Assembly (NCBI GenBank): GCA_023231475.1
Contig: JALJEE010002657.1
Location: 1 to 38,015 of the forward strand
Reading direction: 5' to 3'
DNA from: Seison nebaliae
Lineage: Eukaryota
Length of the DNA stretch: 38,015 nt
The notes under the pieces are model-generated. The model searched no databases, was not told the origin of the DNA, and saw only the letters and a program-made list of their open reading frames with translations. A program made the translations under genes and the position numbers. Numbering within the stretch: the first letter of the stretch is position 1; every line of letters begins with the position of its first letter. Positions 2,100 through 37,727 of the stretch are shown piece by piece.

Positions 2100-3161
2100 A
2101 TGAATTTGCACTTACTTCCATTGAGCCAATCGTCCATTAATTTGGGCTGGCACATTGAACGTTCAGTTGAAGGATATTACTTATACAATCGATTTACACA
2201 TAAGTCTCTTTGGTTGAAAGATAATAAAGATGTTCCCTTTTCCTTTATGCATTCAACAATAATTTCTTCTATTTCTCAAGGAAAAATATGAAAATTATAA
2301 AATAAAATTTTCCATTCCCGTCGTCCAGTTAGTGGAAGATTATCTCAAACGAGTAGTTAGTCATTTATATTAGTTAGTATAAAAACTTTTAATTTTCATT
2401 ATCAGCCGTGGTATTCATCTTATGTAAAACATCGAAATTATCGATTTCTGAGTATCGACACCAATTTCCTGATTTCGGAAATCGATAAACTTTTATTACT
2501 TTTCCAGGAATGGAAATTGAGTGCAGCAGAAATGAAATGTATCGAATATACTCATGTTAATCTGTCGTCGAAAATGGAACTAGACGATAATACAGAGAGT
2601 GAGAGTATACGTAAAATACATTCGATGCGACCTATTCCAATTATTCATGTGTCATGGATCGTCTTACAGGAATTGGATGGTTTGAAGTTACGGGATGAGA
2701 ATATCAGAATAAGAACGAATTACGTACTGAAGAAAATCAATGAAATTATTGTAGAGCAGAAGAAGATATTGAGGAATGCATTAATTATTACCGGTTTCAT
2801 CGAATTCCTATTACTTGAGACAAATCAAGAAAGTTTTAACGCGTCACTATATCGAGAAGTTTGTGGAAATGATGATAAGATTATGAATTCAATCATTCAA
2901 TTTAGAAACAAATACAGTTCCTTTAAATTTCTTTATCTTCATCACTTGAACTTATCTCGTCCATATACAGAGTCACCTTGCTTGTTTTTGACAAAAGACA
3001 ATGGACTGATAACAAAATGTCATTGCGAAAAGATTGAAGTCTCTCAATCATTTCCGGCGTTCTTCTTCGAGAACAAATATAACATTTATCCGGAAAAATT
3101 TCTCAAAAATCATCTCGAGATTATAGAGAAAGAATGTATTCCAATTGCACCTCTAAATTAA
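2100..3161 (+). CDS. SWT1: SWT1-like RNA endoribonuclease (WW-like domain plus PIN domain)
   Basis: Exons 2100-2231, 2281-2352 and 2406-3161 join in frame; small in-frame introns inside the last block are possible. WW-like GWHIERSVEGYYLYNRFTHKSLW; PIN motifs IDTNFLI, VLQELDGLK, NDDKI, LTKDNGL. The 5' start is uncertain. Confidence 0.75.
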
Positions 3162-3761
3162 AAACTGAAAACTCTAAAGAAATTTGTAAATAAATCTGTA
3201 AAGAATATTCGAATTATTTGACATTTGTTTCTTGATAACAATTTTCTTCAACTTTTACATGATAAAATAACAAGATTATTTGAAATAATGAACATTCTTC
3301 ACATCACTTCTCCGACTGTAAAATAAGAGAAAAAATATTTCGAGAGAAAAGCTTCGACTTACGATAAGAAAAGATTTTTTTTTGACGAATATATCGAGTT
3401 TGGAGGAAGGCAAATCGAAAGAAACAAATGAGAGAACATTATAGAAGACTATTAAGGAGAATAATAGAAGAAGAATAATCATAATGTTTCCTCGTCATTG
3501 AAAAATGTAAATTGATAAGAAAGAAAAAAATAAATTGAGATAAAAGAGAATTGTTTGGACGAATCAGAAGATTATCTCATTTTAATTTCTATTAATTTTT
3601 AATTTTTAATTTCATGTTTCTTTTCTTGAATTCGGACAATAATAATTGATTAAATATCTTTTAATGTAGAAAAATTGTATTGAAAAGAAAAGATTAATTG
3701 GAAATAAGAACATATTTCATTTTAATTATTATCTTTTACTATTATTTTAATAAGAACCACC

Positions 3762-5144
3762 ATGCCTGAGTATGCAGAGGACGAACATGTTTCCAGTAAA
3801 CGTCTCCAACAGACCCAAGCACAAGTGGATGAAGTTTAATCCAACTCTATCAAACACCTCATCATTAACTCTCATTCAAATTAGGTTATTGGTATTATGA
3901 GAAATAATGTCGAAAAAGTTTTGGAAAGAGATCAACAAATCTCTCAATTAGATAATCAAGCAGGTTCCCTATTTACTTCTCATTCATTTACTAAAATTAC
4001 GAATAACATATATTTTCGTGAAAATTTTATTTGATGGTTTGATGATTTGATGGAAAATAGATGAATTGCAAGCAGGCGCTTCGCAATTTGTTATGAGTAC
4101 AACAAAATTGAAAAAGAAGTTGTGGATGAAAAATCTAAGGGTAATAATTGAAATAAAAATCATCACCTCTGAATTGCATTTGCTTCCTTTTACTTTTTCC
4201 TATGAGATCATTCACATCTCATTCGATATATCCGATCACAAAAATGTTCACGGGATGAAAAAATATTTAATTCATTTCTTTTTAATGCTTCTTATAGTTG
4301 ATTTGGTAACAAATGCACATATTTTTGCTGTAACCGCTCAAGAGTTGAAAGTAGCGATGCGTGTGAAAAAATCACGAGTATATTATCTGATTATTATAAA
4401 TTAGCTGATTAATTTATTTTATGTTGAATTGAATATTATCAATAAGTTTATTAATAAGGAATGTTGATAATTTTCTTTTTAGTTGAACTAATTCCACATT
4501 TATTTTATAGCAAAATTGAATGATGATGCTAAGAAGTTCCAGCACATGGCTAAACAGATTAAGCGTAATTTCTGGTATGATAATATGAAGGTTCCATTCT
4601 TGAACTCCAATCCATTAACTTAACCGTTCTTAAAACTAACCACTCCAACTAATCAAATTACTTTAATTTCTCACATCAATCCCATATTAGAGTCGACTAA
4701 CTTTTATCTGCTATTTACCTCTCAATTATTGAGTGAAAAAATTGAAATATTCTTTATTTAATTTAGATGTGGCTACTATTAATAGTGACATTACTCTTCA
4801 TTATATTATCAGTCACCAGTTAGTTCATTCTTCATTCATTTCTTCTCAATTTCCTTTTTAAAGTTTATTTCGTTGTACATTCCCATTCGGTTCATAGCGA
4901 TGGAGGTGGAGGAGGAGGTGGCGGTACGAAAAATTTGCAAGGCGAAAACCAAAATGCTGTTCAACCACCTCCCCAACAACAAGTTTCAATTGAATCAAAT
5001 AATAATGAAAATGAAGATCAATTGCAGCAACAGGCATTACAACCACCACAAGCTCAGGCACAACAAGCACCACAACCCCAACAACAAATATTGGTCAGTA
5101 GAAGAAATAGAAAGAAACGATTGACACAGTTCAATTTTAATTGA
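3762..5144 (+). CDS. VAMP: Synaptobrevin/VAMP (R-SNARE) with three alternative third exons and a long luminal tail
   Basis: Exons 3762-3833 (ACCACCATG; ...KRLQQTQAQVDE), 3885-3963 (VIGIMRNNVEKVLERDQQISQLDNQA, zero-layer Arg), one of 4061-4140 / 4298-4377 / 4511-4590, 4767-4818 (TM MWLLLIVTLLFIILSVT) and 4864-5144 (IYFVV then Gly-run and Q/P-rich tail). All GT-AG and in frame. Confidence 0.95.
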
Positions 5145-5273
5145 TATTTATTTTCTGTTTTGACATTGGCATTCCAAATTATTTAACCGGAAGTAGAAAT
5201 CTGATAAATTATAAATGAAAAAATATTTATTATGGAATCAACTGAAAATTTTCGTTTCTTTTCAATCTGCCAC

Positions 5274-6014
5274 TCACTCAATTTCCGGAGCCACTGCTAT
5301 TTCCGAATCTTCCACAATCGTCTTGCGTTCTCGTAACTTATCCTCACAATTCCTCTCTTCTCCATCACCATTTTCATGGTTTTTGACGAGATGTCCAACA
5401 ATTCGATATTTCTCTATAAAAGTAATTTATTCATTTCGAATAAAAAGGAAATTGTGGAAAACCTTTAAATCGTTCTATCCAGTTCTCCAATGTTTCCATT
5501 TCATCTTTGTCGAAATCAGATTTACAATAATTTTTCTTGACATCTTCTGGATTGACTGACATCGTTGCCAACAAATAAGTACAATCATTTCCGGCGAAAA
5601 GTGAATATGGTCCATCTAAACATTAGGAAATGATTTTAAAGAAATGAATAAAATCATTTAACTAGGTCCATAATATGGTGATGCTGATGTCACATCATAT
5701 ATGATTCCATCAGCTGCTAGGAATATACGGGGATTATCAATACCATTAAAGATCTTCAATTCTTCCAATGTCAAATCAGCTGAAATTATTTCTAACTCCT
5801 CATCAATCTTTTCAACATTACCTATCGTTGCTCGATATCGATTAATGATCATTTTATATAAGAGATAAAGAATGATACATAGAAGAAATCCATTGAGTGG
5901 TGTCACTTCTTCAATTAAATCAGCCATCATTCGTTCCGAAAGAGAAAGTTTGATATTCTTTTCTAGAATGTCGTCACGGGAAGAGTATAGAGGTAAATCG
6001 TCTTTCATTTCCAT
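5274..6014 (-). CDS. PGRMC: Membrane-associated progesterone receptor (MAPR/PGRMC-like) cytochrome b5-like heme-binding protein
   Basis: Exons 6014-5663, 5615-5463, 5413-5274. N-terminal TM, then LTLEELKIFNG..RIFLAADGIIYDVT..YYGPNGPYSLFAGND..LENWIERFKEKYRIVGHL. Confidence 0.9.
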
Positions 6015-6351
6015 TGAGATTTTGAAGGAGAAAATTTTCCAAAACGAAATTCGAGCGTAAAAATTAAAATTAAAAAAAATCCAATTAATTTCTCTTGCAA
6101 ATTTTAATGCATTAATATGAGTGGACTTTTTTTTCACTTTTTATCAAAATCATTTCTTTAATTAAATTTTCAATTCGACTGATTAATTCAGTGACACAAC
6201 GAAATGATAATGGAAATTTTATTTATAAATAAATTGTCATTAGAATTTGTCATTTGTCTAATACGTAATGAAAGAGCGTAGACATAATAATAATAGAAGT
6301 AAATGAAAACTGTTTATCTTTTGAATATCATGATTGAAATGAAGATAAATA

Positions 6352-7416
6352 TTAAAATTTGTCTTGAGTATTAACACGATAATTGACTGCATCGTCAATG
6401 GTGGGGAATATGTGAGGAATGGGAGAGAACAATAATTTATCGTTGAATCCCATTTGTTCTAGTCGATAGAGCATTGATGATTGACAGGCTGCTAAAACTA
6501 ATTGAATTTTCGCTGTCTCCATTATTTCGATTAATGAAACGAGAACTTTTATTCCCGCACGATCGATATAACTGATAGCTGATGCATCTAAAATGACATA
6601 ATCAACAATCTTCGTTGGAAGGAGATTGTTAGATGAGGTACAACTAATCTTATTCTTTCCTTCTGGACAGATGTTGAATAATTTCAACAACGACCGTTTA
6701 AATACATGAACATTAGGGAAGTAAATATTATCTTCATAACGAATAATTCTTATTGATTGATCATTCGTTTTATCGACATTTTCATAAAAATCTTTATTGA
6801 CATACACTCCATCAATCTTTATCAGTTCGATAACGTTCTGTGTTTGTGTTCGAATTATCATAAGAAGGAAAGTAGCAAGCAGTCCAATAATGAGACCATA
6901 TGTTACATCGAGAATGGCTGTAGAGAGGAATGTGATCAACCAGATGGAGCCTTCGATTCCATTCGTCTTAAAGAATTCACCCACATCGATAATTTTCAAC
7001 ATCATTCCTTTCAACGCCACAATGACAATTGCTGAGAGAGTCGTCTTTGGTAACGGTTCGAATAACGGTCCCAAAAAAATAAGAACGAAAAACAAAATAA
7101 TTGATGAGAAAACATTGGTCAATAAAGTACGACAACCAGCATTCACTTGTACCAACGTCCTTGAAATAGAAGCACCCATTGGTATACAACTGAAGAAGGA
7201 ACCGAAACAATTGGCGAGACCAATAGCAATCAATTCCTGATTAGCACTTATTCGATAATTATATTTCTTTGCAAATAGATCTGCTAAAGAGTATGACATA
7301 GCATAACCGATAATGGCAATTGATATACTCGAACTAATGACATCATTAAAGACATTCCAATTCATTAAAGTAACTGATGGTAATCTGAAACAAAGAGAAA
7401 AATTAAAAACAAGAAC

Positions 7417-7458
<42 letters not shown>

Positions 7459-8556
7459 CGAACCCTTTTGGTACATACTCCAAAACTGAAACACCAAATT
7501 TATCAGAAATACCAGTCACATAACTGACAGTTGTCGATAGAATGACGACGATTAATTCGATTGGAATTGGCATAAACATTTTCTGTTTAAATGGTTTATT
7601 AATACTTTCTTTACAAATGATCATTGCTCCGATACAAACGATGGCCACCACAACCGTAATACAATTTGATCGATGAATATTGGAGAGAATTCCATAACTA
7701 TTCTATTAGAGAAGAGAATTAGATTAGAAATTTCAATGGAAATATATTAATTAACATGTATCAATTTAAATATTCCACTATGTTTCTTGATAGTGAGACC
7801 GAGTAGACCTGGCAACTGACTAACGAGAACATGTAAAGCACATCCACAAATGAAACCAGCCACCAACGGTTCTGATAAATAGATGCTGATAATACCTAAA
7901 TGTAAGACGCCGAGAATTAATTGAAATAATCCATTCAATAGAGTTATCAAAGTAGCTATGTTAATTCGAGTCAATTCGTTATCAACGAGATCATCTCTCG
8001 TATTAATTATTCTCGTTATACATCCACCAGTCATCAACGACGTTATAGCAAATGTGCCAGGAGAGACATGATTGGAGGTAGCAAATAAGACATAAATCAA
8101 TACGGGAAAAAATGACGAGTATAATCCATAAATTGGCGCTACTTCAGCTAACATAGCATATGCCATACCTTGCGGTATCTGCATTATGGCCACCGTCATC
8201 CCAGCTACTAAATCACCAACTATATCTTCTTTAAATTTATAGTTCGGTAACCATTTCGTCATAGGAAGATATTGATGTAGACGATTCAACCATGCTCGTC
8301 TAGTACATTTACACGATTTCTCACAATACTTTCTCACTATTCCACTCTTGTCCTTTTTTGCTCGTCCACGTTTCTTCAATCGCTCTTGACAATCTCTCTC
8401 ATCAACCCATTGCAAATGTATTTGATTCTTAACTTTCTCATATTTACTGTCAAATTCACATTGGGTCATGTAATTCTTATTTATTCCATTTATCTCCGAT
8501 TCATTCACCACTTCTTCTAACGTCTTCTTCTCAACCAACAATTTCTCATTCTCCAT
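6352..8556 (-). CDS. SLC26A: SLC26 (prestin/pendrin-like) anion exchanger with C-terminal STAS domain
   Basis: Exons 8556-7756, 7702-7464, 7384-6352. Motifs GDLVAGMTVAIMQIPQGMAYAMLA, YGLYSSFFP, NQELIAIG, SISRT, and STAS VILDASAISYIDRAG...FPTIDDAV. Confidence 0.95.
7417..7458. repeat. (AAT)14 microsatellite in SLC26 intron 2
   Basis: Perfect 42-nt AAT run inside intron 7385-7463. Confidence 0.95.
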
Positions 8557-9856
8557 TGTCTTTATTACAATTAAGAATGATTCGAATTCCCCTACTCCTC
8601 CTCACAACTGTGCTATTCCGTCTATTAGCATGATAACTCAATTCTAACTCTTTTTTTTTTTAATTTCCATTCAATTCTTAATAGATATTTTACTAAAAGT
8701 TTTCTGTTAATTTATTGGCCTATTTTTATAATAATTTAAAATTTTTTTATTTACACAATTAGAATCTTATCTACTTTGTCATTTTTATAGTACGTTCCTT
8801 GAATTAATGATTTGTGTTCTTAAAAATTATAAAACAAACCAAATAAACGAATAACAATATAAAAAAGAATATATATAATTAATAAATTCCTTAAATATTT
8901 TGAAATGAAGCTTAAATTTCAAATTTAAATTTTATAAATTGCTCCAAAGAAAGGCTAGTTTAAAGTGGGACCTTATAATTCATAAAATTCGTCCATGAAT
9001 AGAATTAACGTATGACAATCACATGTTATGACCTGAATGTTTCAACTACCATTCTTGTAATAACTATTTTATAAATTTACTCATTCCAGTTAAGAAAAGT
9101 TTTTATATCTTGGTTCTCATGTATCTTAATTACGATGATTGGAGTTTTAAAAAATGAACAAGATTAAGTTGGATGATTAAAGGTTTGTGTTTGCTTGTTT
9201 CTTCATTTGCATTATGTTGAATGATGAATGAATTCTAAATGCCTTAGGACCCCTTGTCATAATTCTTTTCATGACATTAACCTACAATTTACTGATAAAT
9301 ATTTTTACATATTTCTGTTTATGAATAATAGTGATCGAACAATTAATTTTAATTTAATTTTTGTTTGTAGATATTCGGGAGAATAACGCATAGAGACGCA
9401 TGTTAGAATTGCTAAATTTCGGTTAGTTATTTACTCGTAATCTTTTTATTCTATATGTAACTGATGATAAAAGATAATTCGCCAAAATTTTTTCTTTTGA
9501 ATTTTCGATAATGATAATAAAATATCTCTTAGCTGTCTGATTGGTACTGTAAGTGAATAAGTAATACATAGTTATTCTCAATGCTAATACTTTTTTCTTT
9601 TTAATAGAGAAACCAATGGAATCGACCAACCGACTAAGGGAAAATATGGATGAGAAAGCGAACGATGGAATTGGATCACATTGATTTTAAATGAAACTAA
9701 ATTATTTTGATTTAATAAAATAAATTTTCGCTCCCTATTAACCGTGTTCTTAAGAGAGAAAGAGTGATATGAATTTTAATTAAATACTGACATTTTTTGC
9801 GTTATTTTGAAGAAGTCATTTAAATATTTTACTTTTAACGAGAACCTCTTTTGATT

Positions 9857-11054: not shown

Positions 11055-14000
11055 TTAACCACCAAAACACACTGCAGACATGGATAAACCAAATGCGGAT
11101 TCGTCCGATCCAACATTCTTCAATCCAATATCTTTAATTGGTAGAGCTTGAGTATGTTTCGTTCGGACTTCCAACACAGCATTTCCCCATTTGTTTTGTT
11201 TCTATACAAGTAAATGAAACAAATATAATATAACATAAATAATATAAACCATGCAATTATCTTCAACTGTATTATAGAATTTTCTTCCTTTATGAGTGAA
11301 AATTGCATCGTTGATTCCTTTCAATTTTATTGCACCATTGTGAATTTTATTGTTCTCATTCTTCACGGCAATTGTATTGAAACAATTATATGTAAGTCGT
11401 TGATATCCATATTCACTCAATAATTGTAAGAATTTCAGTTGATTTTTGGCAATATGATATTTGAACTAATAGTGTATTATATTTAGGTAGAATAAGTAGT
11501 TAAGTTCAAACCTCATTTGTGCCCAAGATGTCCAAGTTGAACCAAATATGTTCTTCTGGTTCACCTTTGATCCAATCTGATTTCTCAATTGAACTCATAG
11601 GTTCGATACAACTTTCTCCTTTCGCCATATCGCAAAAAACAACAATTGAATCTTCTGCATTACCTTCATTGGGATCAATGTAATACATTCCTTTAATAAA
11701 TGATAATGATACAAAGTAATAAAAGAATCTTTTTAAAAAATAACCTGAAGTTGCATCAGGATTTACTGTTTTTATATGTTGACATGTTAAACCAGGATTT
11801 TCCTTTGAACCAGATGGTTTTTTTTGATTTCTTAAAAACATACTTAATTTTTCAATTCTATGGAATAGTTCTTCGTTAATCTCATTATGAACTAAAGATG
11901 ATTCATCATGTCGAGCAGGACCTTTTTGTCCATCAGGTGCAGTGTACATTCGGGTAAAGAGTCGGTAGTCCAATTGTGCTGCAGGGCCTGGGGGACCAGG
12001 AGGACCTGGTGGTCCATCATCTCCTAGGATTCCTTTTGTACCCAAATTTCCGCGAATTCCTCGATGTCCTGGAGGACCTCGAGAACCCAACAATCCAGGA
12101 ACTCCAACGGTACCATATTCTCCTCGATCTCCCAAGCGGCCCTGAGTTCCTTGGGGCCCTCTTTCTCCCGGTTGACCAACTGGACCTATCGGTCCCATTA
12201 ATCCCATTTTTCCAGGAAGACCTGGAAATCCAGTATTTCCTTTATCTCCTCTGTTACCAATTTGTCCTGGACGACCTTGTTCTCCTGAGAGTCCACGTGG
12301 ACCTATAGGTCCATATTCTCCTTCTAACCCTTCTGGACCACGTTTACCTGGATCACCAACAAGACCCATTTTGCCCATCATTCCAATGGGACCAGCAACA
12401 CCGGGCTTTCCCACTGGACCTTTTGGACCAATTAAACCTGCGGTTCCTTGCTCTCCTTTAGGTCCTAGAGATCCTCTCTGACCAGGTGGACCATCAGATC
12501 CCACATTGCCCCTCGGACCTTCAGGTCCTGATGCACCAGCTTTGCCTTGTTTTCCACGGCTACCTCTTATTCCACGAGGTCCCGGTAATCCGTGGGGTCC
12601 TACGCTACCTTTGGCTCCGTTAGTTCCATCCTTTCCTTTAGGACCTAGAGGACCGCGTTCTCCAGGTAATCCTGGCGAACCTGTTGGTCCTTTTGCTCCC
12701 AAACTTCCTAATGCACCCATTATGCCTTTAGCTCCAGCAATTCCTTCTCTACCTTGGACTCCTGGTCGACCATCATCTCCTCTTGCTCCTTCTTCACCCA
12801 TCACACCGGTTTCTCCATCCAAACCTTCAGGACCAGTTAAACCCTAATAATATTGATAGTATCATATAATTGATATCTATTACATTAAGAATTATAATAA
12901 CTTTTGGACCCTGAGAACCCACTTCTCCGTCAGAACCTACATCACCGGCTGCACCTGGAAAGCCACCTGCTCCCTTTTCGCCATCTCTTCCTGGAGCTCC
13001 TTGAAGTCCAGGGCTTCCACTATTCCCTGTTTGACCACTTGAGCCCAGCAAACCGGCAGCTCCAGGAGCTCCTCGTTTTCCTTGAACACCTGGTAGACCT
13101 TCCTTGCCTTGTGGACCTGGATGGCCGTCGCTTCCCTTTGCTCCCTTTTCTCCTAACATTCCAGCTGCGCCCTATAATGAATTTGGAAACCTTAATTGTA
13201 TATGATGGTAATAATGGAATATTTAACTTGAACACCTCGGGCACCTGCTTCGCCTTGGAGTCCTTGGAGTCCTGGTTTACCTCTGTCTCCTCTTTTACCA
13301 GTTTCTCCCTTGTTACCTGATGGACCTGACAAACCTTGTTGTCCTTGGCTACCTTTTTTACCTTGGTTTCCAGGACTTCCATCTTCGCCATCGTTTCCAT
13401 CGTCTCCAACTATACCTTGGATGCCTGCCGGACCGGGATTACCCTTAATATATTGGTCATTTAAACAATAACGCGATAAAGAACAATTTCCTAACTTTTT
13501 CTCCCAATTCGCCTTTCGCGCCAATCTTACCTCTTTTGCCTTGGGAACCCATATTACCAATTGATCCTGCACTTCCAATAATTCCTTTCATACCTCTATA
13601 TCCTTTGGCACCTGCGGGACCAATATCACCCGAAGATCCAGATTCACCTTTCTTTCCTTCATTTCCGGTAGGTCCTCGTTCACCAGGTGCTCCAATAACT
13701 CCCCGTAAACCTTGAGGACCATTTATACCTGGTCGACCAATGGCGCCAACATCTCCGACGCTTCCTGGTTTACCGGTTCGACCTCTTACTCCTGGAGCAC
13801 CTTGTGTTCCTCTAGTACCAATCATACCTTCTTGTCCTCGATTGCCCTTTTTTCCAGCAACACCTGGTTTTCCTGTTTTGCCTGGAACACCAATGACACC
13901 AGAAGAACCTTTGGTACCTTTCCTACCACTCTTTCCTCGTTTTCCTTGAGGTCCAGCACTTCCGTCTGCGCCAATTTTACCGGGCTTTCCAATATCTCCA

Positions 14001-15672
14001 AGACTTCCATCAATTCCGGTTTGTCCGATTTTCCCACGTACTCCCGATTCACCTTGAAGTCCAGTAGGTCCTGCTTTACCGGATTCACCACGAAGACCTG
14101 GATTACCTATTTTCCCTTGTAAACCTTGTAATCCTTTTGCTCCTTGTGGTCCCGTTGCACCCTTTTCTCCCATCAATCCTTGAATACCTCTTGGTCCGAT
14201 TTCTCCTTTTTGACCAGTACCTCCTTGCATTCCTTCGGGACCTGATAGACCCATATCGCCATCTTTACCTGATTCACCAGCTGGTCCAACACTGCCTTTC
14301 ATACCAATATCGCCTAACGGCCCACGTAATCCTGGTTCTCCTGTAGATCCTCGTTTGCCTTGCTCGCCAACTGCTCCTGCATCCCCAGGTTTTCCACGAG
14401 AACCGGGTGGTCCAAAGTTTCCAGCGTCACCAGTTACTCCAGGATGTCCAACTAGACCATGGATTCCAACAGATCCTTTTTTTCCAACAATACCTCTTTT
14501 TCCTTGTGGTCCCGCTTGACCTGGGTTTCCACTTTCACCGCGAGAACCAGTTAATCCTTTGAGTCCTGCTTTGCCTTCACGACCTTCAGATCCAGGAAAA
14601 CCTGAATGTCCATCAGATCCTGCTATTCCCTTTGGTCCCTTGGCTCCCATTGGTCCATAACCGCCAACGTCCCCTTTTCTTCCAGGCATTCCTTGGTAAC
14701 CGACAATACCTCTAGCTCCGGTGTTGCCGTCAATGCCCTTTTCGCCTTTTAATCCTGGTTTGCCAGATTCTCCGGGTTTTCCCGAAGATCCAACAGATCC
14801 CCGAAATCCTAAGGGACCTCTTAATCCATCACCTCCTCGATTACCCTGAGGTCCAGCCGGCCCTCTTCTTCCTGGGAGTCCAGTTGGACCTTCTTCTCCC
14901 TTTTCTCCGGGTACACCAAGTAATCCTTTATGTCCTGGCATTCCCATTTGTCCGGGTAATCCTGCTTCGCCATGTTGACCAATTTCTCCTCTATTTCCTG
15001 ACTCACCATCACTTCCTCTTGTGCCTTTAACTCCCTGTAGTAAAATAACAAATATTATGTAGTAACTTCAATATTTATTTATTTTTATCCAACCATAAAT
15101 CCAAGAGGTCCTTGTTCGCCTCTAGCTCCTCTAGGTCCTGGTAATCCAACTGTTCCAGCTTCTCCTCGAGGACCTTTTGGTCCAGAATATCCACCTAGAC
15201 CGGGAGAACCTGGTGAACCAATGGCACCAAGACTTCCTGGCTCACCTTGAGTAAAATATTCCAATACTGGTTGTGAAGCTAATTGAGCTTTATTTGATGA
15301 GTTTAAATGAGCAGATAATTGAGTTAGATAATCAGCATTAGGTTTCTAAAATTTTTCAACATATTTTATAATAATTTAAAATAAATATGAATGAACCTCA
15401 CCAGGCAAGCCTGGATCACCGACTTCTCCCGATTCTCCAGGAATACCATCATCTCCTGCTAATCCTGGTAAACCAGCGTCACCATCAAAACCTCGGAAAT
15501 CTTTCGTTCCTACATCAACGTTGCCATCTGCACCCGGTTCCTGACCACGAAATATTAAATTATCATTTCCATAAGCATCTTGTCGGCTTAATAATTCCAA
15601 GTCTATTTCACTTGGTGGTTTGGCATAAGCACTGACTATACAAAATACCAATATCGGTATAATTGCATTCAT
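11055..15672 (-). CDS. Fibrillar collagen alpha chain A (signal peptide, short minor helix, 1014-aa major helix, COLFI C-propeptide)
   Basis: Helix-coding segments 15246-15094, 15034-13496, 13443-13228, 13171-12902 and 12843-11980 total 338 Gly-X-Y triplets. COLFI motifs GSKENPGLTC, YYIDPN, QLKFLQLLS..QRLTYNC, LPIKDIG, AVCFGG*. Confidence 0.95.
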
Positions 15673-17360: not shown

Positions 17361-20300
17361 TCAGTGAATGAAACAGACTTCGGATAGTTCAAATCCGAAT
17401 TCTGATTTCGATGAGTCGATTCCTGTTAAGCCAATATCTTTTATCGGAAGACTTTGGACTTTGTTCGTATCGATTAATAATTCCGCAATTCCATCATTTT
17501 CCTAAAAATGTTAATAAAAAATTCAATGTAGAGAAAGAATTGTTTAAACCATGCAGTTGTCTGAAGCAACTTCATATTTAAATGATGATGTGGGAGAGAA
17601 TACAGCATTGTTCATTCCTTGTAATTTTACTGCGTTTTCAGACACTTCATTCATGTCGTTATTAACCGCAGTGGTATGTTTACAATGCATCGTAAGACTT
17701 TGTCGAACTCGTTTACTTTGGAGTTGCAAGAAGATGAGTTGAACATCTTTCATTTCGTATGAAAACTAAAAACAGTAAATTATATAATATTATTATTAAT
17801 AAATTTGTTTGCCAAACCTGTTTCTGATTAACAATATCATCGTTAAACCATAAGAGGTCTTTAGAAGATCCCTTGAACCAATTATTTTGTGGAACATTTC
17901 CTGTTGGTTGAATACATGTTTCTGTTTCTCCCTCGAAGGAGCAATATACTCGAACAGCGTCATCTTTTCCCATACCATTAGGATCGATATAATAGAAATC
18001 TTTTCAAAACAGTGAAAAATTATATGATGAGTTAATAAAACAAAACCTGATTTGATATTTGGATTTTTCAATTGTATATCGTTACATGTTCGTGCTGGAT
18101 TTGTGATGGTTCCCACTGAATCAGATGGGTTTGATAATAATGATGTTAGGTCAGTAATTTGTTTAAGAACACTCTCATCAATGGAATTCTCAGAACGCCT
18201 TCGCGGTCCTTTTGTTCCCGTTCCGGGAGACATTAAACTGCTTAGTAATCTGTAATCCATTTGGGCAGCTGGTCCTGGTGCACCAGGAGCACCTCGCGGA
18301 CCTGGTTTTCCAACTCCACCATTTCGTCCGGAATATCCACGTTCTCCTCTTGGACCAGCTTGTCCAGTTGGCCCTTGTGGTCCTTGAGGTCCTGGTGGTC
18401 CTCCTTCACCTCGACTTCCTGGTGGTCCTTGTGAACCTCGTGGTCCAGCTGGACCAGCAGGACCTTTAGGACCTTTCTGTCCGTCTAAACCTGGCTTTCC
18501 TGGCATACCAGGGAAACCGATATGACCCTTTGGACCCATTGAACCAACAGAACCCTTGTCTCCACCAGGCCCTTGTTCTCCAACATCGCCTTGAGGCCCA
18601 GCTGGACCGGCTGGTCCAACATCTCCAGTATCTCCTTTGTCCCCAGCTGGTCCTTTTGGTCCTTCTGAACCTGTTGGACCTTGACTACCTGCAGGACCTG
18701 GAGGTCCTTTCATACCTTCAGGTCCCATTGGTCCGCCGTCACCCTTTTCTCCTGGTTCGCCCTGCATACCTGGAGGTCCTTCACGACCTTCATCTCCTTT
18801 TAGACCCGGACTTCCGCTTGTTCCTGGTGGACCCTGAGAACCTCGAGGACCTCTTGAACCTACTGGACCTGGTTGGCCGGCAGTGCCAGCTGGTCCTGGT
18901 GGACCTCCAGGACCTTCTGGTCCAGCGGGACCCGATGGTCCTTTTTCACCAGTCAAACCTACTGGACCAGCAGGTCCTTTTTCGCCAGCTGGACCCTTAT
19001 CTCCCGGTTCTCCTGATGATCCTTGTTCACCGGGTGGACCTGGTTCTCCAGCTTCACCAGCTGGTCCTTGTAAGCCATCTTTTCCATCTGCTCCAGCTGG
19101 ACCCTGAGGACCAGCATCACCGGTATCACCTTTAGGTCCAGCATCTCCAGCTGGACCCATTTCTCCTGGAGCGCCAGCCGGTCCTTCGTTGCCAGCAACA
19201 CCTTTAGCTCCTGCAGGACCTGGAATACCAGGTCGTCCGGCATTACCAGGAGATCCTGGCAGTCCTCGCATACCTGGTGAACCATCTCGTCCCGAAGATC
19301 CCTGTTCACCCGGATTTCCAGTTTTACCTGGTTTTCCAACTCTTCCTTCTAGACCTTGTGCACCTTCACTACCTCGTTCTCCTGGTAATCCTTGTAAACC
19401 CTATCATCAACGATTTAGTTCAAGTTTGTTATATTTATTTACTAACAGGTGCACCCATAGGACCAGTAGATCCTGCTGGACCAGTTAATCCAGTGTTTCC
19501 GCGTTCTCCAGGACTTCCAGTATCTCCTTTTGGTCCTGGTTGTCCAGCATCACCTTTGTCACCTTTTCCTCCCATTGGTCCCATACTTCCTGGTTCACCA
19601 TCTCTACCTGGCATTCCATCGCTACCAGGCATTCCATTTTCTCCTGGTCCACCTTGGATACCCTGCATGAATTGAGTCAGATGATGAAGTATAATTTAAA
19701 AATATAACTTTCGGTCCTTCTGGTCCAGCTAATCCTGCAGGTCCTACTGGACCCATAGGGCCAATTGATCCCATTGGACCTGATGGGCCTATTGCTCCTC
19801 GATCACCAGGCTTTCCAACATTTCCTTGAATACCTTGCATTCCAGCACTTCCACGTTCACCCTTTTCTCCTTGTTGTCCTAATGGACCTCTTGGTCCAAT
19901 TGGACCGATTGGACCCATTGGACCATCATTTCCAGCTTTTCCTATTTTTCCAGGAGCTCCAGTATCTCCAGCACGTCCACGTTGACCAGGACGACCTTCA
20001 TTTCCTTGAGGACCTGGTTGACCTGTTGGTCCCATTTCGCCTGCTTGACCTTGGGGGCCTGGTAACCCTTGTTTACCTTCAGGCCCTTGTTTTCCTTCTG
20101 CTCCATCTTTTCCTGATTCACCAGCAACACCTTGTTCTCCTGATGGACCAATTGATCCAGGTTCTCCTGTCGGACCTGGAGGTCCTGCAGGGCCCGGTCC
20201 TCCATCTTTACCAGGAGCACCTTCGGTTCCATCATTACCATTCAAACCAGGTTCTCCTCGTTCTCCGGTATTCCCTCTTTCTCCAGCAGGTCCTGGAGCT

Positions 20301-22040
20301 CCACGAGGTCCACCAGGACCAGCTTTTCCTGGACGACCGGCTCTACCTGATGGACCACGAAGTCCGGTTGGTCCTTGTTCTCCGGCGACACCTGGTTCTC
20401 CCTTATCTCCAGCATCTCCTTTGTCTCCTGGAGCTCCTGCCGGACCAGTTTGTCCGAGAGGGCCAGCAGGACCTTCTTTGCCATCAGCACCTTCTTTGCC
20501 TTGTTCACCAGCAGATCCAGTCTCTCCTTGAGGTCCAGCTTCTCCCATTGGACCAGCCGGTCCTGGTGCTCCAATTTCTCCTTGCGGTCCAGCTTCACCA
20601 TCTTTTCCTGCTAAACCAGTTTCACCTTGGGGACCTAATTCACCTTGGATACCTTGAGCTCCAGCATCTCCAGGTTTGCCAGCCAAACCAGGAGTTCCGG
20701 GAAATCCACGAGCACCCATTAAACCTCGAGGTCCAGTTGCACCGGGAGCGCCAAGAGGACCTTGTGATCCAACATCTCCTTGGACTCCAGGAGCGCCCTG
20801 TGGTCCCATGTCTCCTCCAGGTCCTTTTTCTCCTTGAACTCCTTGTTCTCCTTTCTCTCCAGCAGCACCAATAGCTCCCATATCACCCTTAGCACCTGCC
20901 AATCCGGGAAATCCTCGTTCACCCATTGGTCCTGCAGGACCAGGGCTACCTTTACCTCCAGGGTAACCTGTACTACCTGGAGAGCCTTGTGCGCCTCTGG
21001 GACCAGGTGGACCTCGGAATCCAGGATTACCACGTTGTCCTTCATCTCCTCTAGGACCTGATTGACCAATTAGACCTCTTGGACCTTGTGGACCTGCAAC
21101 ACCTCGCTCTCCTTTGGCACCTAGATGACCTTCATTTCCTTTCACACCTGGAATACCAGGAGGACCCATCATGCCAGGTTCACCAGGTTTACCGTCTTCG
21201 CCATCCTTTCCACTGGGACCAATACTACCAACGTCGCCCTTTTCGCCCTTAAAAATAACAAAATTTGTAAATTCGAATATATTTAAGAATTAAACCGCTG
21301 GTCCTCTTGGTCCTTGTTGTCCTCGTGGACCTTGAATGCCTTGTAAACCGTTACTTCCAGGTTCGCCTCTTGATCCCATAGGGCCTCTTTCGCCCCGTGG
21401 TCCAGATGGTCCAGCTTGGCCTGGTTCTCCATCACGACCAGGTTCCCCTTGAGAATAGTACTGCATTTGTGGCATAGCAGCCAAAGGACCTTTATTGGAT
21501 TGTCCTACTTGTGCGTTTACTTGTTGAATAAATTCGTCATTTTCGTTCTATTTTCGGATATTAAACCTTTAAAAAATGAATTAAAAAATAAACTGTTGGT
21601 TCTTCTCCGGCTTCCGGTTCTTGTCCGCGAGCAATTTTTCGATGAACACTGCCCTCAACTTCAGCTGTAATGGAAAGAGAAATAACAATAAATTGGATAA
21701 TCACAACAAGACGTTTTATTGAATAAGTTAATGTTTTAAATGAATGAATAATGATCATTTATTATCAAAAAGAATTCATTGCTTTGTAGCAGTAATTAAG
21801 ATTAGGAATTTCTATGCATTGAAAACGACGATCAAATGTACAACGACAAGCTGCACATCGATCGTTCCAAAGTTCGGTGCCTGCTTCATAGTAGATTGAT
21901 TGGCCATTGTCACTCGTCAAATGACATCGATTTTGTACTTCTGAAATAAAAAGCAAAAACAATTACTAACATTTCGGTGCAGCGAAACATCGATGTATTA
22001 CAAGAACGGATAAAAGTAGATAGATTGCCAAAGATTTCAT
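17361..22040 (-). CDS. Fibrillar collagen alpha chain B (signal peptide, 1014-aa major helix, COLFI C-propeptide)
   Basis: Exon 1 22040-21971 ([23 protein letters not shown]) splices in phase 1 to 21664. Helix segments 21448-21296, 21247-19709, 19662-19447 and 19400-18267 total 338 triplets. COLFI motifs [41 protein letters not shown]. Confidence 0.95.
21765..21937 (-). CDS. vWC-like six-cysteine exon inside intron 1 of collagen B (alternative terminal exon or relic)
   Basis: [56 protein letters not shown] matches the C..G..W..D.CxxCxC...C...C pattern of the first vWC subdomain. Preceded by TTTATTTCAGAAG; TGA followed by AATAAA. Confidence 0.55.
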
Positions 22041-26498: not shown

Positions 26499-28670
26499 AT
26501 GGGAAAAAAGAAACAAAAGAATGTCGATCGTTTATCGAAGAAACAGGAGAAGAAGAATGCAAAAGAATTAAAGAAAGAAATTCAACAATCGGGAGAGGTT
26601 TACTAATTTGATTTTTAAATAAAGTAATTTCAAGTTGAGAAATTCAGATTCCAATCGAAGAATTAATTAAAAAGAAAGAAATCGAATCGAATGATAAAGG
26701 AAATCATGTCAAATTCCATCAGATGGAAAGTGGTCCAAATAGGAGATGTTATGGCAGTTTCACAGCTCATCCGGTTAAGAATGAATTGATCATGTTTGGA
26801 GGTGAATATTATGATGGCGAGAAAGTTAGAGAATGAACAAATTTGAAATATATCAAATTCATTTTAGATGTATGTTTATGATGATCTATTCATTTATCAA
26901 GTTAAAAAGAATCAGTGGGTGAAAGTGGATTATGGAACTGGTCCAACGGGACGCAGTTCTCATCAAATTATCGCTACGAGTCGTGGAAAAGGTGGTGAAT
27001 TGTGGATGTTCGGTGGTGAATTTACATCAGAGACTCAATCACAATTTTATCATTTGAAACAATTATGGCGATTAGATTTAGACACGTTTCAATGGGAGAA
27101 GATTATGTTAAACTTTTTTCTTTCTTCCTTTACATTTCACTCACTCTTATCCTAACGTTAGTGCTCCCAATGGACCGAGTGCTCGAAGTGGACATTCGAT
27201 GGTTTTACATCAGAATCATTTAATTGTTTTTGGAGGATTTCATGACGATTTGAGGTTTCATTTTCATATTCTAACTTTAATTTATTCCAAACGATTTTAT
27301 TTCAAAAAGAATATGTCGATATTTTAATGACCTTCACATCTTCTCATTAGATAATAGAGAATGGATTAAAGTAATCGATTTTGGTCTTGTCTGCACATCA
27401 TTTCCAACCGAACGATCGAAAGCTCATTTATTTTCTGTTCCATCGTGTGAGAAGTTTCCCAATGGTAAAATAATATTATTTGGAGGATATTCGAAAGAGA
27501 TTCCGGCGGAATTAAGGACAAAATCGATTGAAATTCAAGATGAGAATTCGGTGGGACATACTCATCGAGATATGTTCGAATTTATTCCATCTTTCGAAGT
27601 CATTCAATCCACCACTACCACAACATCAAGTTGTATCGTTAAAAGTAAGAAGAATCAAAAGAAGAAATCGGCGAAAGACAATTCTCGAAATAATATTCAA
27701 TTGAAATCATGGACATGTTCGGAAGTGAAACAAAGTAAAACATCATTCCAACCATCAGTCAGAACGTCAGCACTTTTTCTTCCTTATTTGCAAAAGATGA
27801 ATTTAGAGAAGAAAATTCCAGCAATTTATTCCGTATATTTCGGAGGAGTTGCTGATTATTCGAAGAATAATAAAAATGAATTAGTGACAGATTATGAGGA
27901 CGGATTATGTGAAACGACTTTCTTTAACGATCTCTATTCGTATGATTCATCACGTAATAAATGGAGACGAATGTATGAACGAAAGAAATTGAGTAAAGCC
28001 ATCAAAGATGATAAAATTCATAAAGATGATGATGATAATGATGAAGAGATGGGCGAAGGTGATAAAGAGAGTTTAGAAATCGAACAATCATCAAATGTGG
28101 AAGCGAAAGAAGTTTCTGGTGAAAAATTCAATTTGAAAATCGAAACGGAAAAAATTGAGAACGATAAACGCATCTTCATCGACGAACACAATTATCAGGA
28201 CGATGATTGTTTCTTTCTTTTTCTAATTAATTTCTAACAATTCCAATCATTATCTTGTTCAGACGAAACGGATGAAGAAGATATTAACAAGAAAGTTATG
28301 GTGAATGCTCCCAGACCACGAATGTCATCAATGGGATGTGTGAAGAACTCGATTCTTTATATTTTTGGCGGAATTTTCGAAACTAAAACTTCGAAACAAG
28401 TTCCTTTTTTATTACAATTATTCAAATTTATTAAAATTATTTAAACTTTAGATATTTCTTCAGGATTTCCACTCCGTCAATTTACAGCAAATCAATAAAG
28501 GATGGAATGAAATCATCAGAGATGATATTCAAGAAAAAGTTTCGATTTTTTTTTCTACTCTTCAAAAAAATGATGTGTTGAAACAGGACGTGAAGAACGA
28601 GGACTCAGAATCAGATTCAGAAAGTGAGACAGATACAGAATCGGAAAGTGAAAATGAATTAATGGATTAA
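26499..28670 (+). CDS. KLHDC4: Kelch domain-containing protein 4
   Basis: Eight exons join in frame. MGKKKQK start, FTAHPVKNELIMFGGEYYDG, RSSHQ..LWMFGGEFTSETQSQFYH, GPSARSGHSM..FGGFHD, FFNDLY, PRPRM..LYIFGGIFE, acidic C-tail. Confidence 0.92.
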
Positions 28671-30090: not shown

Positions 30091-32217
30091 ATGGCAAAGA
30101 ATGACAAGAAGGAATGTGTATCTGTAAATGGAGACGGAGCGTCCGTGAATCCAATGAATGGACTAACAAATGATTTGAATGAGAAGATGAAATCAGAAGC
30201 ACTTGAACTGAAGGAGAAAGCTAATAAATTCTTCAAAGGTGTCCTTCTTATTTTTTTCTCCTTCATCTCTAATATCATCTTATAGAGGCAAATTATTCGG
30301 AAGCTGTCAACTTGTATACCGAGTGCATTAAATTAGATGGGACGAATGCAATCTTCTATTGTAATAGAAGTCTCGCCAATTTGCGACTCGAACTCAATGG
30401 AGCGGCATTGGCTGATGCAGCTGACGCACTCAAATTGCAACCGGGACTTATTAAGGCGTTATATCGTCGAGCATCAGCTAATGTAGCTATTGGACGATTG
30501 GGTGCAGCAATGAATGATTTGGAGACGGTTTCCAATCTATTATTCGAAATAATAATTGTTAAATTTCGTTAATAATCTAAATGAAAAGGTGTTGGGCAAA
30601 TTGCCAAACAATCCAGAAGTTAAAAAAAAATTGAGATTATTAAAAGAAATGGCATTCCTTCGTTCCATCAGGAATCCGAACGCTGAAAAAGAAACATATT
30701 CGAATGATTATTACAAATCAATAAGTTTCTCAAACTATTTAAATTATGTTCATGACATTTTCATATAGATATCAATGAGAATTACGAAGGTCCACGAATT
30801 CAGGATGATGGCGAGATTACTGAACATTTTATGTCGAATCTCCTCAATTGGTTCGAACAAGGCAAAAATTTACATTTGAGATATGCATTCCAAGTTAATT
30901 TCGAAATTGATAAACTTCATTCGATTATCGATCAAAATAGATGTTGTTGAAATTTAGAGAATTTATGAAAAAATTACCGTCGCTTATCGATATTACATTC
31001 CCCGAAGAGAAACATTTTACAGTTTGTGGTGACATTCATGGACAATTTTATGATTTATTGAATATCTTCAAAATTAATGGGAAACCGTCTACCGATAATC
31101 CGTATGTTAGTTCTTAAACATATTATTTCTTACATTTCCATTCTTACATATTTGAGCATTGTTAATTGAACAATTCTCATTGAATGATGATATTGCAGGG
31201 GTACGTAAACATTCAGAATGTCGAATGTGCGAATAATTATCGATGGCGTTATCATGTAAATAGCTGAATTTTCGTATGATAATACATCGTAAAATTATTT
31301 GCGGACAAAGCAATCACTGATAAAATAAATGGAATTATATTATTTTCATTAGAAAAATGAGAATTTGCAAATTTTTTAATTTTTCTCTTTTCTCTTCAAA
31401 GTTATTTAATGGAGATTTCGTTGATCGTGGATCATTTAGCGTCGAATGCATCTTTACATTGATCGGTTACAAATTATTATATCCCAATCACTTCTACATG
31501 TCAAGAGGTTCGTCATTCAAATAATTTTCCTCAAATCATAATTCAATTAATTTCAGGTAATCATGAATCGATTCATATGAATCAGATGTATGGTTTCGAA
31601 GGAGAAGTAACGGAGAAATTAAATTCAGCATGTGCATCACTCTTCCATGACGTTTTCAATACATTGCCGTTATGTCATGTGATCAATAAGAAAGTTTTCG
31701 TAACTCATGGTGGTATCGGGAAAGAGGAAACGTTCAATTTAGAAGAAATAAGGAAAGTGAATCGCTTCCGTCAACCACCAGATAGTGGAATCATGTGTGA
31801 TTTGTTGTGGAGCGATCCATTTGATGGTGTTGGAACATTCGCTTCAAAACGAGGCGTAGGAATCCAATTTGGTTCGGATATTACAGAGAAGTTTTGTGAG
31901 AGAAATAATTTGCTATATGTGATCCGTTCACATGAGGTGAAGATGGAGGGCTATGTCGTCCAACATCATGGCAAACTGATAACAGTATTCTCTGCTCCCA
32001 ATTATTGCGATCAAATTGGAAATAAAGGAGCGTTTATTCGATTGACAGGATCAAAACTCACTCCAAATTTCACTTCTTTCGAAGCAACGGTTAGAATTCA
32101 TAAAATATTTTTATTGTGAAAAAGAACGATTGAATTTCTTCTCTTTTTAAGGAACATCCACAAGTACGAGCCATGAAATACGCAAATCCAATGCTTGGTT
32201 TACTCGGTATGAGATGA
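30091..32217 (+). CDS. PPP5C: Serine/threonine protein phosphatase 5 (TPR plus PPP catalytic domain)
   Basis: Exons 30091-30238, 30286-30527, 30589-30724, 30769-30893, 30941-31105, 31402-31507, 31557-32089, 32152-32217. TPR residues [24 protein letters not shown] motifs GDIHGQ, GDFVDRG, RGNHE, HGG, DLLWSDP, RSHE, FSAPNYC; C-terminal [11 protein letters not shown]. Confidence 0.97.
31180..31324 (+). ncRNA. Intronic box C/D snoRNA candidate, SNORD94-like (U6 snRNA 2'-O-methylation guide)
   Basis: Box C ATGATGA 31184-31190 and box D CTGA 31317-31320, in the only long (296 nt) PP5 intron. GCAGGGGT after box C is antisense to U6 GCCCCUGC. Long internal hairpin present. Resemblance to SNORD94 is from memory. 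Confidence 0.65.
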
Positions 32218-34990: not shown

Positions 34991-37050
34991 TTATGCTCGA
35001 ACGGAATGATTATACCGGGCTCTCAGAATTCTTAAACGCCGACACTCTACGACACAAAAACGACGGCACATGAGAATAGGAAGTGGTGCGATATTTACTG
35101 TTGCAAAGAGAAGGGAACAATTGCATCTATGAAAACAACAGATAGTCCTCCTAATCAGCCGATTATAGGCCCGATCGAGAGAGAGGAATGAACGATGTGA
35201 ACAGAGAAAAATCGTCTCCAAGGAATACATCGGTAGAACTAAACTCTTAAGAAGCGAAAGACGGATCTTCAACTGAAGGAATTTGGATTTAGGAGAAAAA
35301 GAGAAGAACGCTCTACAAAATTTATTTCGAATACGATCGAGAGCACACGATGAGAATGGCCGAATATCGAACAAAGAGCCGAGAAAGACGTATGAAGAAC
35401 TGAGAGGAATGTTAAAGAAAGAACGATTGCCAGTCGACAACAACCAACATTTGGATTCATTAATGGAAATACCTCTTTCAGCTAGAAGACGAGTAATGCG
35501 TAGATATGAAACTTTTAGTTTGCGAAGCGACCGATGGATGATAACGAAATCGTCGGCATATGGCATAACGTGAGGAAATGGAGAGTTTCCAATATCGATC
35601 AGATTGTTCTCATTTAGTTCACGGAGAACGCCATCGATAGCCAGTCCGAATAACCAGGGACCCAAGATAGTTCCTTGACGAACACCCGAGTTGATTTGGA
35701 ATGTGGAACTGAAGTTGTCACCATGCACTACACGTCCAGACGAGTTTTGAGAAAGATGAATGAGGAGCTTGATGACCGGTAATTGTACACCTTGACGCTG
35801 TAAGTGATCGAAAGCGAAGGAAACGTTGACGGAATCAAATGCCTTGGAAGCATCGAGGAAAAGTAGATGTAAGGACAATTTCTTGTCTCTCGCGATAGAA
35901 ATAGCTGAACGAAGAATCAGCAGGAGAGGATATGTTCCTCGACAGGAAGAGTGATAAGCAAATTGATATGATGACGAATACAGAGCATTTCGATAATGAA
36001 ATAGAATAAGATTCTCCAAAATTTTCAGTAGGAAAGAAGAGATACAAATCGGTCTGTAGGAACGTAAAGAAGATTGATCGATATTTGGATTCTTTAAGAT
36101 AGGAATTATTTTAAAGAGAAGAGAAATGGAACGGAAATTAAGATGAGAGAAAATCCAATTCACAAAATTGGTGAGGTCGATTACGAGTGAAGGAAGAAGA
36201 CGATCAACCAGTTTGATACAGATATTATCAAAAGCATGTGCCTTCGTTTCATCAAGCCCCAGAACGGATTCAGAAATTTCTTGAGGAAGAAAAAGATCGC
36301 AATGAGAGTTAAGATTGGAATAATCATAGTGATCGAATGAAGTGCGATACATATATGCGCCAAAATACTCAGCAAATGATTCAGCTGGAATAGAGGAGGA
36401 TTGAATTGAATTGGAAGAGCGGTTGCTGATTAGCTTCCAAATATTAGATGAATGAGAAGAAAGGCAAGCGGCTTTCAGTCTACAATGGAAATGATCACGG
36501 ACACACTCTCTCACGGCTCTACGAAAGACTTTCCGCGATTTTAGGAGAGACTCAAGATTGAAAGAGGAAGGATCGACACAAAACTTTTTCCAGCAATCTG
36601 TTGCTCGACGTTTAAGGTGGATTATAGATGAGAAATTGGAAACAGGAGGACGAGAAAAATGTTTTTGATGAGACATTACAGAAGATGAACAATGAGCAAT
36701 AAGGGAAAGCTGTTCAGGTACCGAGAAAGCGGTGTTCAGTAACGAAAAGAAGACATCAGACACGATTGCATCTTGTCGAATGGGAGAAAATTTGCAATAT
36801 TTTTTACAAATATTGACTGTTGTTTGGTGTTTATTCAGCGAAGGAAGATCTTTTGACACAGATTGGGATGAGATGGGAATGGTTAGAGCGATAGGAAGAT
36901 GATCTGACAAGGAAGATAAGAAAGAATCGTGAACAATTTCGTAGACAACTGCAGATGTACTTAGACTGTCATTAATGATGAAGTGATCAATCCAGGAACT
37001 GCTCGAATGGGATGTGAACGTTACGGAGTCATTCTTACATAATTTGTAGC
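34991..37050 (-). mobile_element. Non-LTR retrotransposon (LINE) ORF2: C-terminal part of APE endonuclease plus intact reverse transcriptase; 5' truncated
   Basis: Frame is open upstream of the called ORF and gives TFTSHSSSSWIDHFII...SDHLPI (APE motifs). RT motifs YRPICI, FLDASKAFDSV, GVRQGTILGPWLF, YADD (35549-35560), YVFLG. Confidence 0.93.
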
Positions 37051-37055
37051 TTCGA

Positions 37056-37727
37056 TTACGGAGAGGGATGAACAGAAACTCGAGTGATCGATCGAATGAT
37101 CGAATATTTCGATGTCAATGATCGTTGAATGAGAGTGAGTATATGGGGAAAGAATCCCGATGCCGAGAAGTTATCAATGACGCGGAAAATACGTCGACAA
37201 TATGTAATAGGAAATGGAAGAAACTCGGTGACCGAGAATGTCAGATTTCGATTGATTCTCCTGAAACAACCTAAGAGGCGACGGATGATGTTGTTGTACG
37301 TTCGGTCCATTCTGAGGAATGAGTTGTTGGAGACGAACAGTAGCGAGTCCAGTCCGTATAATGGAAGAACGAGTGAGGAGAAAACACGCAAACGAATAGT
37401 CAATGGAAGATATTTAGATCGTGACGAGAATGAGAAGGAGGCTCGAACTAATTTGTTCCGAATATGATCGAGTGAAGCTGATGCTATCATTTTGGAGTCT
37501 AGGAAGACACTGAGGAACGTATGAGTTTGTGCTGGAAGAGATGAAGTTAGAAATTTCCTCAGCGTTGAGGGAGTTGTGGAAAGGACGACAGTCTTCGTCG
37601 GATTGATTTTGATGGAAACTTCAGCCAGAAGAACCTGTGCTTTTTCACGAATTTGGTTGAGTTATCGAGGAGAAGTAGAAAAAATTACGATGTCGTTAGC
37701 ATATGCTACAATCGTCGTTTTGAGTCG
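37056..37727 (-). mobile_element. Second, diverged and inactivated LINE fragment (C-terminal RT/thumb region)
   Basis: One frame: IVAYANDIVIFSTSPR*LNQIREKAQVLLAEVSIKINPTK...HTFLSVFLD..SLDHIRNKLVRASFSFSSRSKYLPLTIRL. Collinear with the neighbouring LINE (PYADDFVII..LLAERGISINESK..ALDRIRNKFCRAFFSFSPKSKFLQLKIRL). YADD changed to YAND; stop at 37662-37664. Confidence 0.88.

Follow-up and report, generated by a model that had tools for sequence, protein, structure and literature searches.

Three tandem 80-nt exons in a synaptobrevin gene of Seison nebaliae encode alternative versions of the membrane-proximal SNARE layers and are predicted to be used one at a time

The DNA analysed here, called the window throughout, comprises positions 1 to 38,015 of the forward strand of contig JALJEE010002657.1 (assembly GCA_023231475.1) of Seison nebaliae, i.e. 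38,015 nt in total. Around the synaptobrevin gene, which is read from the plus strand, it is an AT-rich, compact, animal-type locus. The gene is flanked by a PIN-domain gene (2361-3161, plus strand) and by a small convergent gene for a membrane protein (5215-6140, minus strand), for which the frame tested gave no Pfam match. Further downstream lie a gene for an SLC26 sulfate transporter with a STAS domain (6352-8601, minus strand) and two blocks that encode collagen triple helix in very long exons (11506-15067 and 17796-21289, both minus strand); the C-terminal domain of a fibrillar collagen comes after the first of these. In addition, the window contains a Kelch frame at 27281, a metallophosphatase frame at 31463 and a reverse-transcriptase ORF of 707 codons (34991-37661, minus strand), apparently LINE-like, which adjoins a sodium:solute symporter.

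In a protein search, two public models of Seison nebaliae under the gene label SNEBB_010426 matched frames of the window. Model P0001 (172 amino acids) contains the first of three exons described below (exon A), while in model P0002 (184 amino acids) 36 nt from the start of exon A are spliced to the third (exon C). An accession lying between those of these two models did not turn up in the searches. Both proteins were reproduced exactly by exons 1 and 2, the respective cassette sequence, and exons 4 and 5 within the limits given in Table 1, with an in-frame intron of 45 nt (4983-5027) removed from the tail encoded by exon 5 as in the public models. The luminal tail is long and rich in Gly, Gln and Pro, with a basic cluster at its end. 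P0001, i.e. the isoform with exon A, aligns without gaps to VAMP2 (synaptobrevin-2) over VAMP2 residues 27-114 (E 3e-29), and the offset of +17 in this alignment makes the cassette equivalent to VAMP2 residues 68-94. It scored 92 bits against Pfam family PF00957 (cut-off 26.4). Its SNARE motif includes the zero-layer arginine (Arg39, equivalent to VAMP2 R56) and is followed by a linker and a C-terminal transmembrane helix, which places the protein among the R-SNAREs. A single-sequence fold of P0002 gave one long helix (residues 8-116; pTM 0.34) and was not informative. Read-through at the donor of exon 4 (4818-4823) would lead to a stop after one codon and hence to a short form with a clipped anchor and without the luminal tail.

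Table 1. Features of the synaptobrevin gene and pieces matched by contigs of a second lineage (positions in the window).
Feature	Position	Strand	Remarks
Exon 1, coding part	3762..3833	+	Start codon to N-terminal SNARE layers; agrees with P0001 and P0002
Exon 2, constitutive, 79 nt	3885..3963	+	SNARE layers to +3, including zero-layer Arg (VAMP2 R56)
Three TTTGATG copies	4030..4052	+	Read directly; in the acceptor region of exon A
Alternative exon A	4061..4140	+	Canonical VAMP2-like, residues 68-94; used in P0001
Internal GT in exon A	4097..4098	+	Donor in P0002; gene-model evidence only
Alternative exon B	4298..4377	+	Most divergent of the three
ACTAAT before exon C	4487..4492	+	Branch-site-like; shared with second-lineage flank; putative role
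Alternative exon C	4511..4590	+	Used in P0002
Three ACTAAY motifs, intron after C	4635..4701	+	First two fit bipartite QKI/STAR consensus; putative role
Exon 4	4767..4818	+	First part of transmembrane helix; same in all isoforms
Exon 5	4864..5144	+	End of transmembrane helix; Gly/Gln/Pro-rich luminal tail
Second-lineage match, exon 2	3882-3967	+	2 of 4 runs
Second-lineage match, exon A	4094-4138	+	1 of 4 runs; GT donor at the same place
Second-lineage match, exon B	4291-4351	+	1 of 4 runs; one 2.2x contig ending within the exon
Second-lineage match, exon C	4497-4598	+	3 of 4 runs
Second-lineage match, exon 4	4762-4822	+	2 of 4 runs

Between exons 2 and 4 the gene contains three exons, termed A, B and C, of exactly 80 nt each, preceded by AG, followed by GT and in phase 1 to 0, with coordinates and translations as recorded in a first-pass annotation of the window. 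As is typical of mutually exclusive clusters, these homologous exons are arranged in tandem, agree in length and phase and have their own splice sites. The region from 3300 to 6300 was spanned by single contigs without any difference in runs X3 and X5 (sample S2). In run X1, which stems from the other sample (S1), two pieces cover it and show a single intronic variant; an assembly artefact is thereby ruled out. Coverage in run X1 was even across the introns and lacked splice joints, and this run was treated as DNA; all sequencing runs compared with the locus behave as DNA.

Homology of the three exons was evident from several comparisons. Both strands of the window hold 152 segments of 80 nt bounded by AG and GT, 52 of which are free of stop codons. 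Scored against a VAMP profile built from 40 distinct homolog segments, A (73), C (53) and B (11.6) ranked first, second and third among these 52, the lead of B over the segment on rank four (10.6) being narrow. Among all 22,448 stop-free 26-mers the ranks were 1 for A, 2 for C and 8 for B, and out of 20,000 shuffled peptides none reached the score of A or C and seven reached that of B. Nucleotide identity amounted to 40/80 between A and B (as good in 0 of 20,000 shuffles), 37/80 between A and C (p 0.0004) and 28/80 between B and C (p 0.09). The Pfam Synaptobrevin family was matched by A (E 1.3e-4) and C (E 3.9e-4). In a PDB search, exon C gave weak matches to VAMP4 and synaptobrevin (E 0.3 and 1.3), which ranked behind designed coiled coils, and exon B gave no match. 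A profile-free search of 1.84 billion representative sequences with exon C returned two matches, both to unrelated repeat proteins, and in a metagenome scan with P0002 none of 596 pattern matches was confirmed. The sole public protein with C is the hybrid of P0002, in which C is joined to part of A and not to exon 2; on its other side, this model splices C to exon 4. The triplicated exon is real. As judged from gene structure, its three copies are probably spliced one at a time as a mutually exclusive cassette, which would yield three synaptobrevins; tandem exon duplication may have produced them.

The cassette covers SNARE layers +4 to +8, which we take to be L70, A74, F77, A81 and L84 in VAMP2 numbering, and the linker to the membrane. 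Since layers +1 to +3 are encoded in exon 2, the swap is smaller than the whole C-terminal half of the helix that the first-pass annotation had assigned to it; likewise, K18 of the exon peptides, counted there as a heptad core position, does not form a core layer. Its central observation, namely that homologous alternative exons keep the core and change the surface, held: A, B and C share 5-7 of 27 residues and differ at 20-22, and the five layers are kept at four positions in A (Thr at +7), at all five in B and at four in C (Ile at +8). Compared with a homolog consensus derived from rows filtered on Phe77, B matches at 7 of 27 positions, among them every one of the five core layers (hypergeometric p 2.6e-4), a pattern unlike neutral decay, and C matches at 9 of 27 with four of the five layers (p 0.03). 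Conservation of the segment in general was high: among 87 distinct homolog segments (filtered on Leu70 and including a few mis-registered pieces from fused models), A74 and F77 were present in 84 each, A81 in 81, L84 in 83 and W89 in 82.

Outward-facing residues differ between the exons. In the order A, B, C they are D/V/A at position 68, G/N/D at 73, S/H/K at 75, Q/I/K at 76 and V/A/Q at 78; Asp68, as in exon A, presumably contacts complexin. The net charge of the linker decreases from +6 in A to +4 in B and +2 in C, and the number of its aromatic residues is one, zero and three, respectively. Trp89 and Trp90 act at the membrane surface. W89 is kept in A and, accompanied by F88 and Y90, in C, and B has neither Trp89 nor Trp90, as noticed in the first annotation. 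The pair Gln76-Phe77, which we take to be the toxin-cleavage site, was correctly described there as being kept in A alone; nothing in these data suggests toxin cleavage as the reason for the cassette.

Conservation of the cassette was examined in contigs from four runs of one sample, compared at 80% likeness, with the consequence that only pieces of at least 80% can appear. Short contigs at 2-4x depth, compared with 27x for the main genome, matched exons 2, A, B, C and 4. They stop matching in the introns and continue into unlike intron sequence. Since they carry intron flanks, these contigs are genomic DNA and not transcripts, and derive from a second lineage or from a congener; their low depth argues against a paralog. 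Such a source is plausible given the two lineages of Seison nebaliae, with 82% mitochondrial identity, that are reported in the available text of PMC8351084. The acceptors of B and C and the donors of A and C lie inside or right beside matched pieces. The match to B ends before the last 26 nt of the exon and its donor, leaving the acceptor and 54 nt of exon conserved. Presence of the cassette in a relative, proposed as a check by the first-pass annotation, was thus observed in full for C, and in part only for A and B.

Differences near the ends of pieces go unlisted, and the position is missing for five of ten differences in C and for all nine in B. The five listed changes in C are all synonymous third-position changes (p 0.003), indicative of purifying selection on this exon; A and B are covered in part only. 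The same holds for the three listed changes in exon 2 (3/3; p 0.04). Third positions diverge between the lineages at 8 of 22 sites (about 36%). Exon B differs at 9 of 61 nt, with p 2e-4 against a rate of 0.36 and p 0.04 against 0.25, its differences being unplaced. An intronic stretch of 39 nt (4380-4418) was also matched in all four runs with unrelated flanks, and short AT-rich matches may accordingly be due to chance. Based on these data exon C is very likely functional, and for B a function can be assumed with good, if lesser, confidence.

It is unlikely that only A and C are used and that B represents a duplicate which is silent or in decay. Such a duplicate would account for the absence of a Pfam Synaptobrevin match for B and of any public protein containing it in the protein searches, for an identity of at most 8 of 27 residues to any of the 87 homolog segments, for the loss of aromatic residues from its linker and for the highest divergence between lineages (15% vs 7-12% elsewhere). 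However, it would have to have retained five core layers among just seven consensus matches, the exact length, an open frame and both splice sites, and its acceptor and adjoining 54 nt are conserved in a lineage in which third positions have diverged as strongly as given above.

The reading frame bears on how these exons can be combined. Inclusion of zero, two or three whole exons leads to a stop by codon 78-80, i.e. both omission and multiple inclusion break the frame, as expected of a mutually exclusive cluster. After double inclusion the stop is located 120-200 nt upstream of the exon 4/5 junction, which is the geometry of an NMD target, and doubly included transcripts might be cleared via these early stops. 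The statement that exactly one exon must be used accordingly applies to whole exons, but not to two in-frame escapes that exist on paper: either C or B could be spliced to 36 nt of A, or A could be read together with the retained intron and B.

These escapes are the basis of a second alternative, in which splicing is not strictly exclusive and hybrids with a lengthened helix are real. It was considered improbable. Public model P0002 represents the form with part of A joined to C, and the intron between A and B is stop-free in frame within the window (2% of shuffles), giving a reading of 266 amino acids with A and B. Yet the hybrid of P0002 would carry 12 extra residues in the SNARE motif, and its second set of layers +4 to +6 would not keep the heptad register. 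An intron in A can also be an invention by which a gene finder reaches exon C, which is how we read this model. The retention frame is closed by an in-frame TGA (read by eye) in the second-lineage flank shortly upstream of B, and read-through of the A-B intron was judged to be probably a matter of chance.

For the proposed mutually exclusive use of A, B and C, potential mechanisms of control were considered. Steric exclusion was rejected, since the two introns that separate A, B and C (157 and 133 nt) exceed the shortest introns of the gene, which are spliceable at 45-51 nt, and their size hence does not enforce exclusivity. Docking and selector pairing of the Dscam type was not significant for any of 21 region pairs tested against shuffles: the best pairing, of B with the intron downstream of C (-20.9 kcal/mol), was reached by 1 of 60 shuffles, and significance was lost after 21 tests. 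Inverted repeats are short and AT-rich.

The acceptor of exon A is purine-rich and hence weak, with a pyrimidine fraction of 0.29 vs 0.65-0.82 in the other five introns, and the TTTGATG copies near it are a possible splicing-control element. In the intron after C, three ACTAAY motifs were observed and 0.29 expected (p 0.0024; 5,000 shuffles; one of five introns tested), and one ACTAAC is also present in the second-lineage flank downstream of C. A bipartite consensus is described for QKI, whose ortholog in the worm, ASD-2, acts as a processing switch in muscle (PMC3875643, available text). As ACTAAY doubles as a branch-site motif, the QKI/STAR reading is a lead only; as such a lead, the A acceptor and the ACTAAY cluster may point to protein-guided exon choice. 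Exclusivity would then result from competing splice sites under the influence of RNA-binding proteins, with the weak acceptor of A and the STAR/QKI-type ACUAAY cluster after C as candidate control elements. The branch-like motif before C is immediately preceded by a run of pyrimidines that includes an additional AG (4476-4492); this run with its AG is shared with the second-lineage flank, at a spacing that would correspond to a different frame, and is a possible decoy acceptor.

Exons that alter SNARE motifs are known from other systems. The vertebrate SNAP-25 exons 5a and 5b are a tandem mutually exclusive pair whose exchange changes secretion, and like the cassette of Seison they represent a duplicated exon that overlaps the SNARE motif and linker (PMC2581893, available text). 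SNAP-25, the textbook example among SNAREs, is a Q-SNARE with two such exons, which differ in nine residues at the N-terminal helix end, whereas the Seison cassette belongs to an R-SNARE, has three exons differing in 20-22 of 27 residues, and affects the membrane-proximal end. Among R-SNARE genes with alternative splicing, variants of VAMP1, VAMP7 and Drosophila n-Syb change the extreme C-terminus or skip domains; unlike in Seison, an in-register swap of C-terminal SNARE layers is not among the variants described in the available text of PMC3123573 and PMC6025963. A full-text search that extended to few subscription journals and to articles without their supplements revealed no mutually exclusive SNARE-motif exon in synaptobrevin.

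Within the synaptobrevin family, the RefSeq isoforms X1/X2 of a tick and X3/X4 of a spider differ solely in the upstream SNARE exon, at three residues. Both copies of this upstream exon together with one C-terminal segment were found in 8 of the 120 listed matches, all from arthropods (models with two upstream copies: P0008-P0014, P0106, P0090/P0121, P0110/P0129). The arthropod pair resembles the Seison cassette in that alternative exon copies lie inside the SNARE motif of the same gene family, but it concerns the neighbouring upstream exon (layers to +3), consists of two copies and is known here from database models. In Seison, the corresponding 79-nt exon is single and the next exon, of 80 nt, is triplicated. 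No description of the arthropod pair was found in the literature searched. In view of this pair, the remark of the first-pass annotation that no such cassette was known in VAMP genes was too strong: an exon swap in the SNARE motif of synaptobrevin has precedent, and the novelty of the Seison cassette consists in its C-terminal location, the choice among three copies and their extreme divergence.

No duplicated C-terminal exon within one gene was detected among the 120 listed of 2,065 matches, and the listed models with two C-terminal segments correspond to whole tandem genes. In the best 80 of 274 loci, a set selected by similarity to canonical VAMPs, the two SNARE segments are contiguous, and being without an intron these loci cannot reveal a cassette; two of the 80 contain two whole synaptobrevin copies (L070 and L078). 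Exons B and C, with scores of 12 and 53, fall below every one of these 80 loci (67-113). In bdelloid rotifers, a nematode and a mosquito there are models in which two tandem synaptobrevin genes have been joined into one (P0005, P0007, P0015; P0003, P0004, P0006).

There is little chance that the cassette is a remnant of merged tandem synaptobrevin genes, with A and C going back to two ancient paralogs of rotifers. In favour of such an origin, bdelloid models P0005, P0007 and P0015 do have two tandem synaptobrevins each, C has its best match in L013 and the second bdelloid paralog within its five best matches (12 and 11 of 27), and A is nearer to the first bdelloid paralog (14-16 vs 13). However, these margins are small over 27 residues, no leftover of exon 2 or of a transmembrane exon is present between A, B and C, and the transmembrane exon after C starts like that of the first paralog.

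With alternative exons A, B and C as the preferred explanation, the three predicted proteins would have the docking half in common, and their differences would concern the last step of zippering and the contact with the membrane. As the N-terminal layers, the zero layer and the anchor are common to all isoforms, partner recognition should start alike. Isoforms B and C are predicted to enter the four-helix bundle with syntaxin and SNAP-25 through their kept inward layers, and in view of these layers they likely complete it. Effects of single changes in this segment are known for VAMP2 (PMC12595502, available text): in neurons, spontaneous release increases 44-fold with E78A and 9-fold with G73W, both of which bind partners more strongly, and S75P and F77S do not rescue; single changes in residues 68-94 cause human disease and shift the balance of evoked and spontaneous release. 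From these mutants, outward changes of the kind found here would be expected to alter the mode of release. Exon B carries Ala at position 78. The changed outward positions 68, 73, 75, 76 and 78, together with the linker, may alter the binding of regulators and the rate of fusion in particular cell types.

The best reading of the sequences is that A would be the standard form for triggered, regulated release. B and C would then be variants that serve particular cell types and differ from A in kinetics, and the fusogenic activity of B may be weak. More tentatively, and with considerable doubt, this epizoic, gene-poor rotifer may rebuild a family of functionally distinct v-SNAREs from a single gene by exchanging the power-stroke end of the helix, with A for triggered release, C for another mode of anchoring and B, which lacks Trp, as a built-in modulator or decoy. 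If this were true, B would assemble with t-SNAREs but fuse spontaneously or poorly, and the gene would amount to a three-way experiment of nature on that part of VAMP2 in which change is least tolerated in people.

Residues 68-94 perform the last zippering, couple it to the membrane and are nearly invariant across animals. Three variants of this segment on an otherwise identical protein separate the contributions of core layers, outward face and aromatic/basic linker. Exon duplication has been recruited independently in two neighbouring exons of one gene, in arthropods and in Seison, and in a reduced genome such splicing may offset gene loss.
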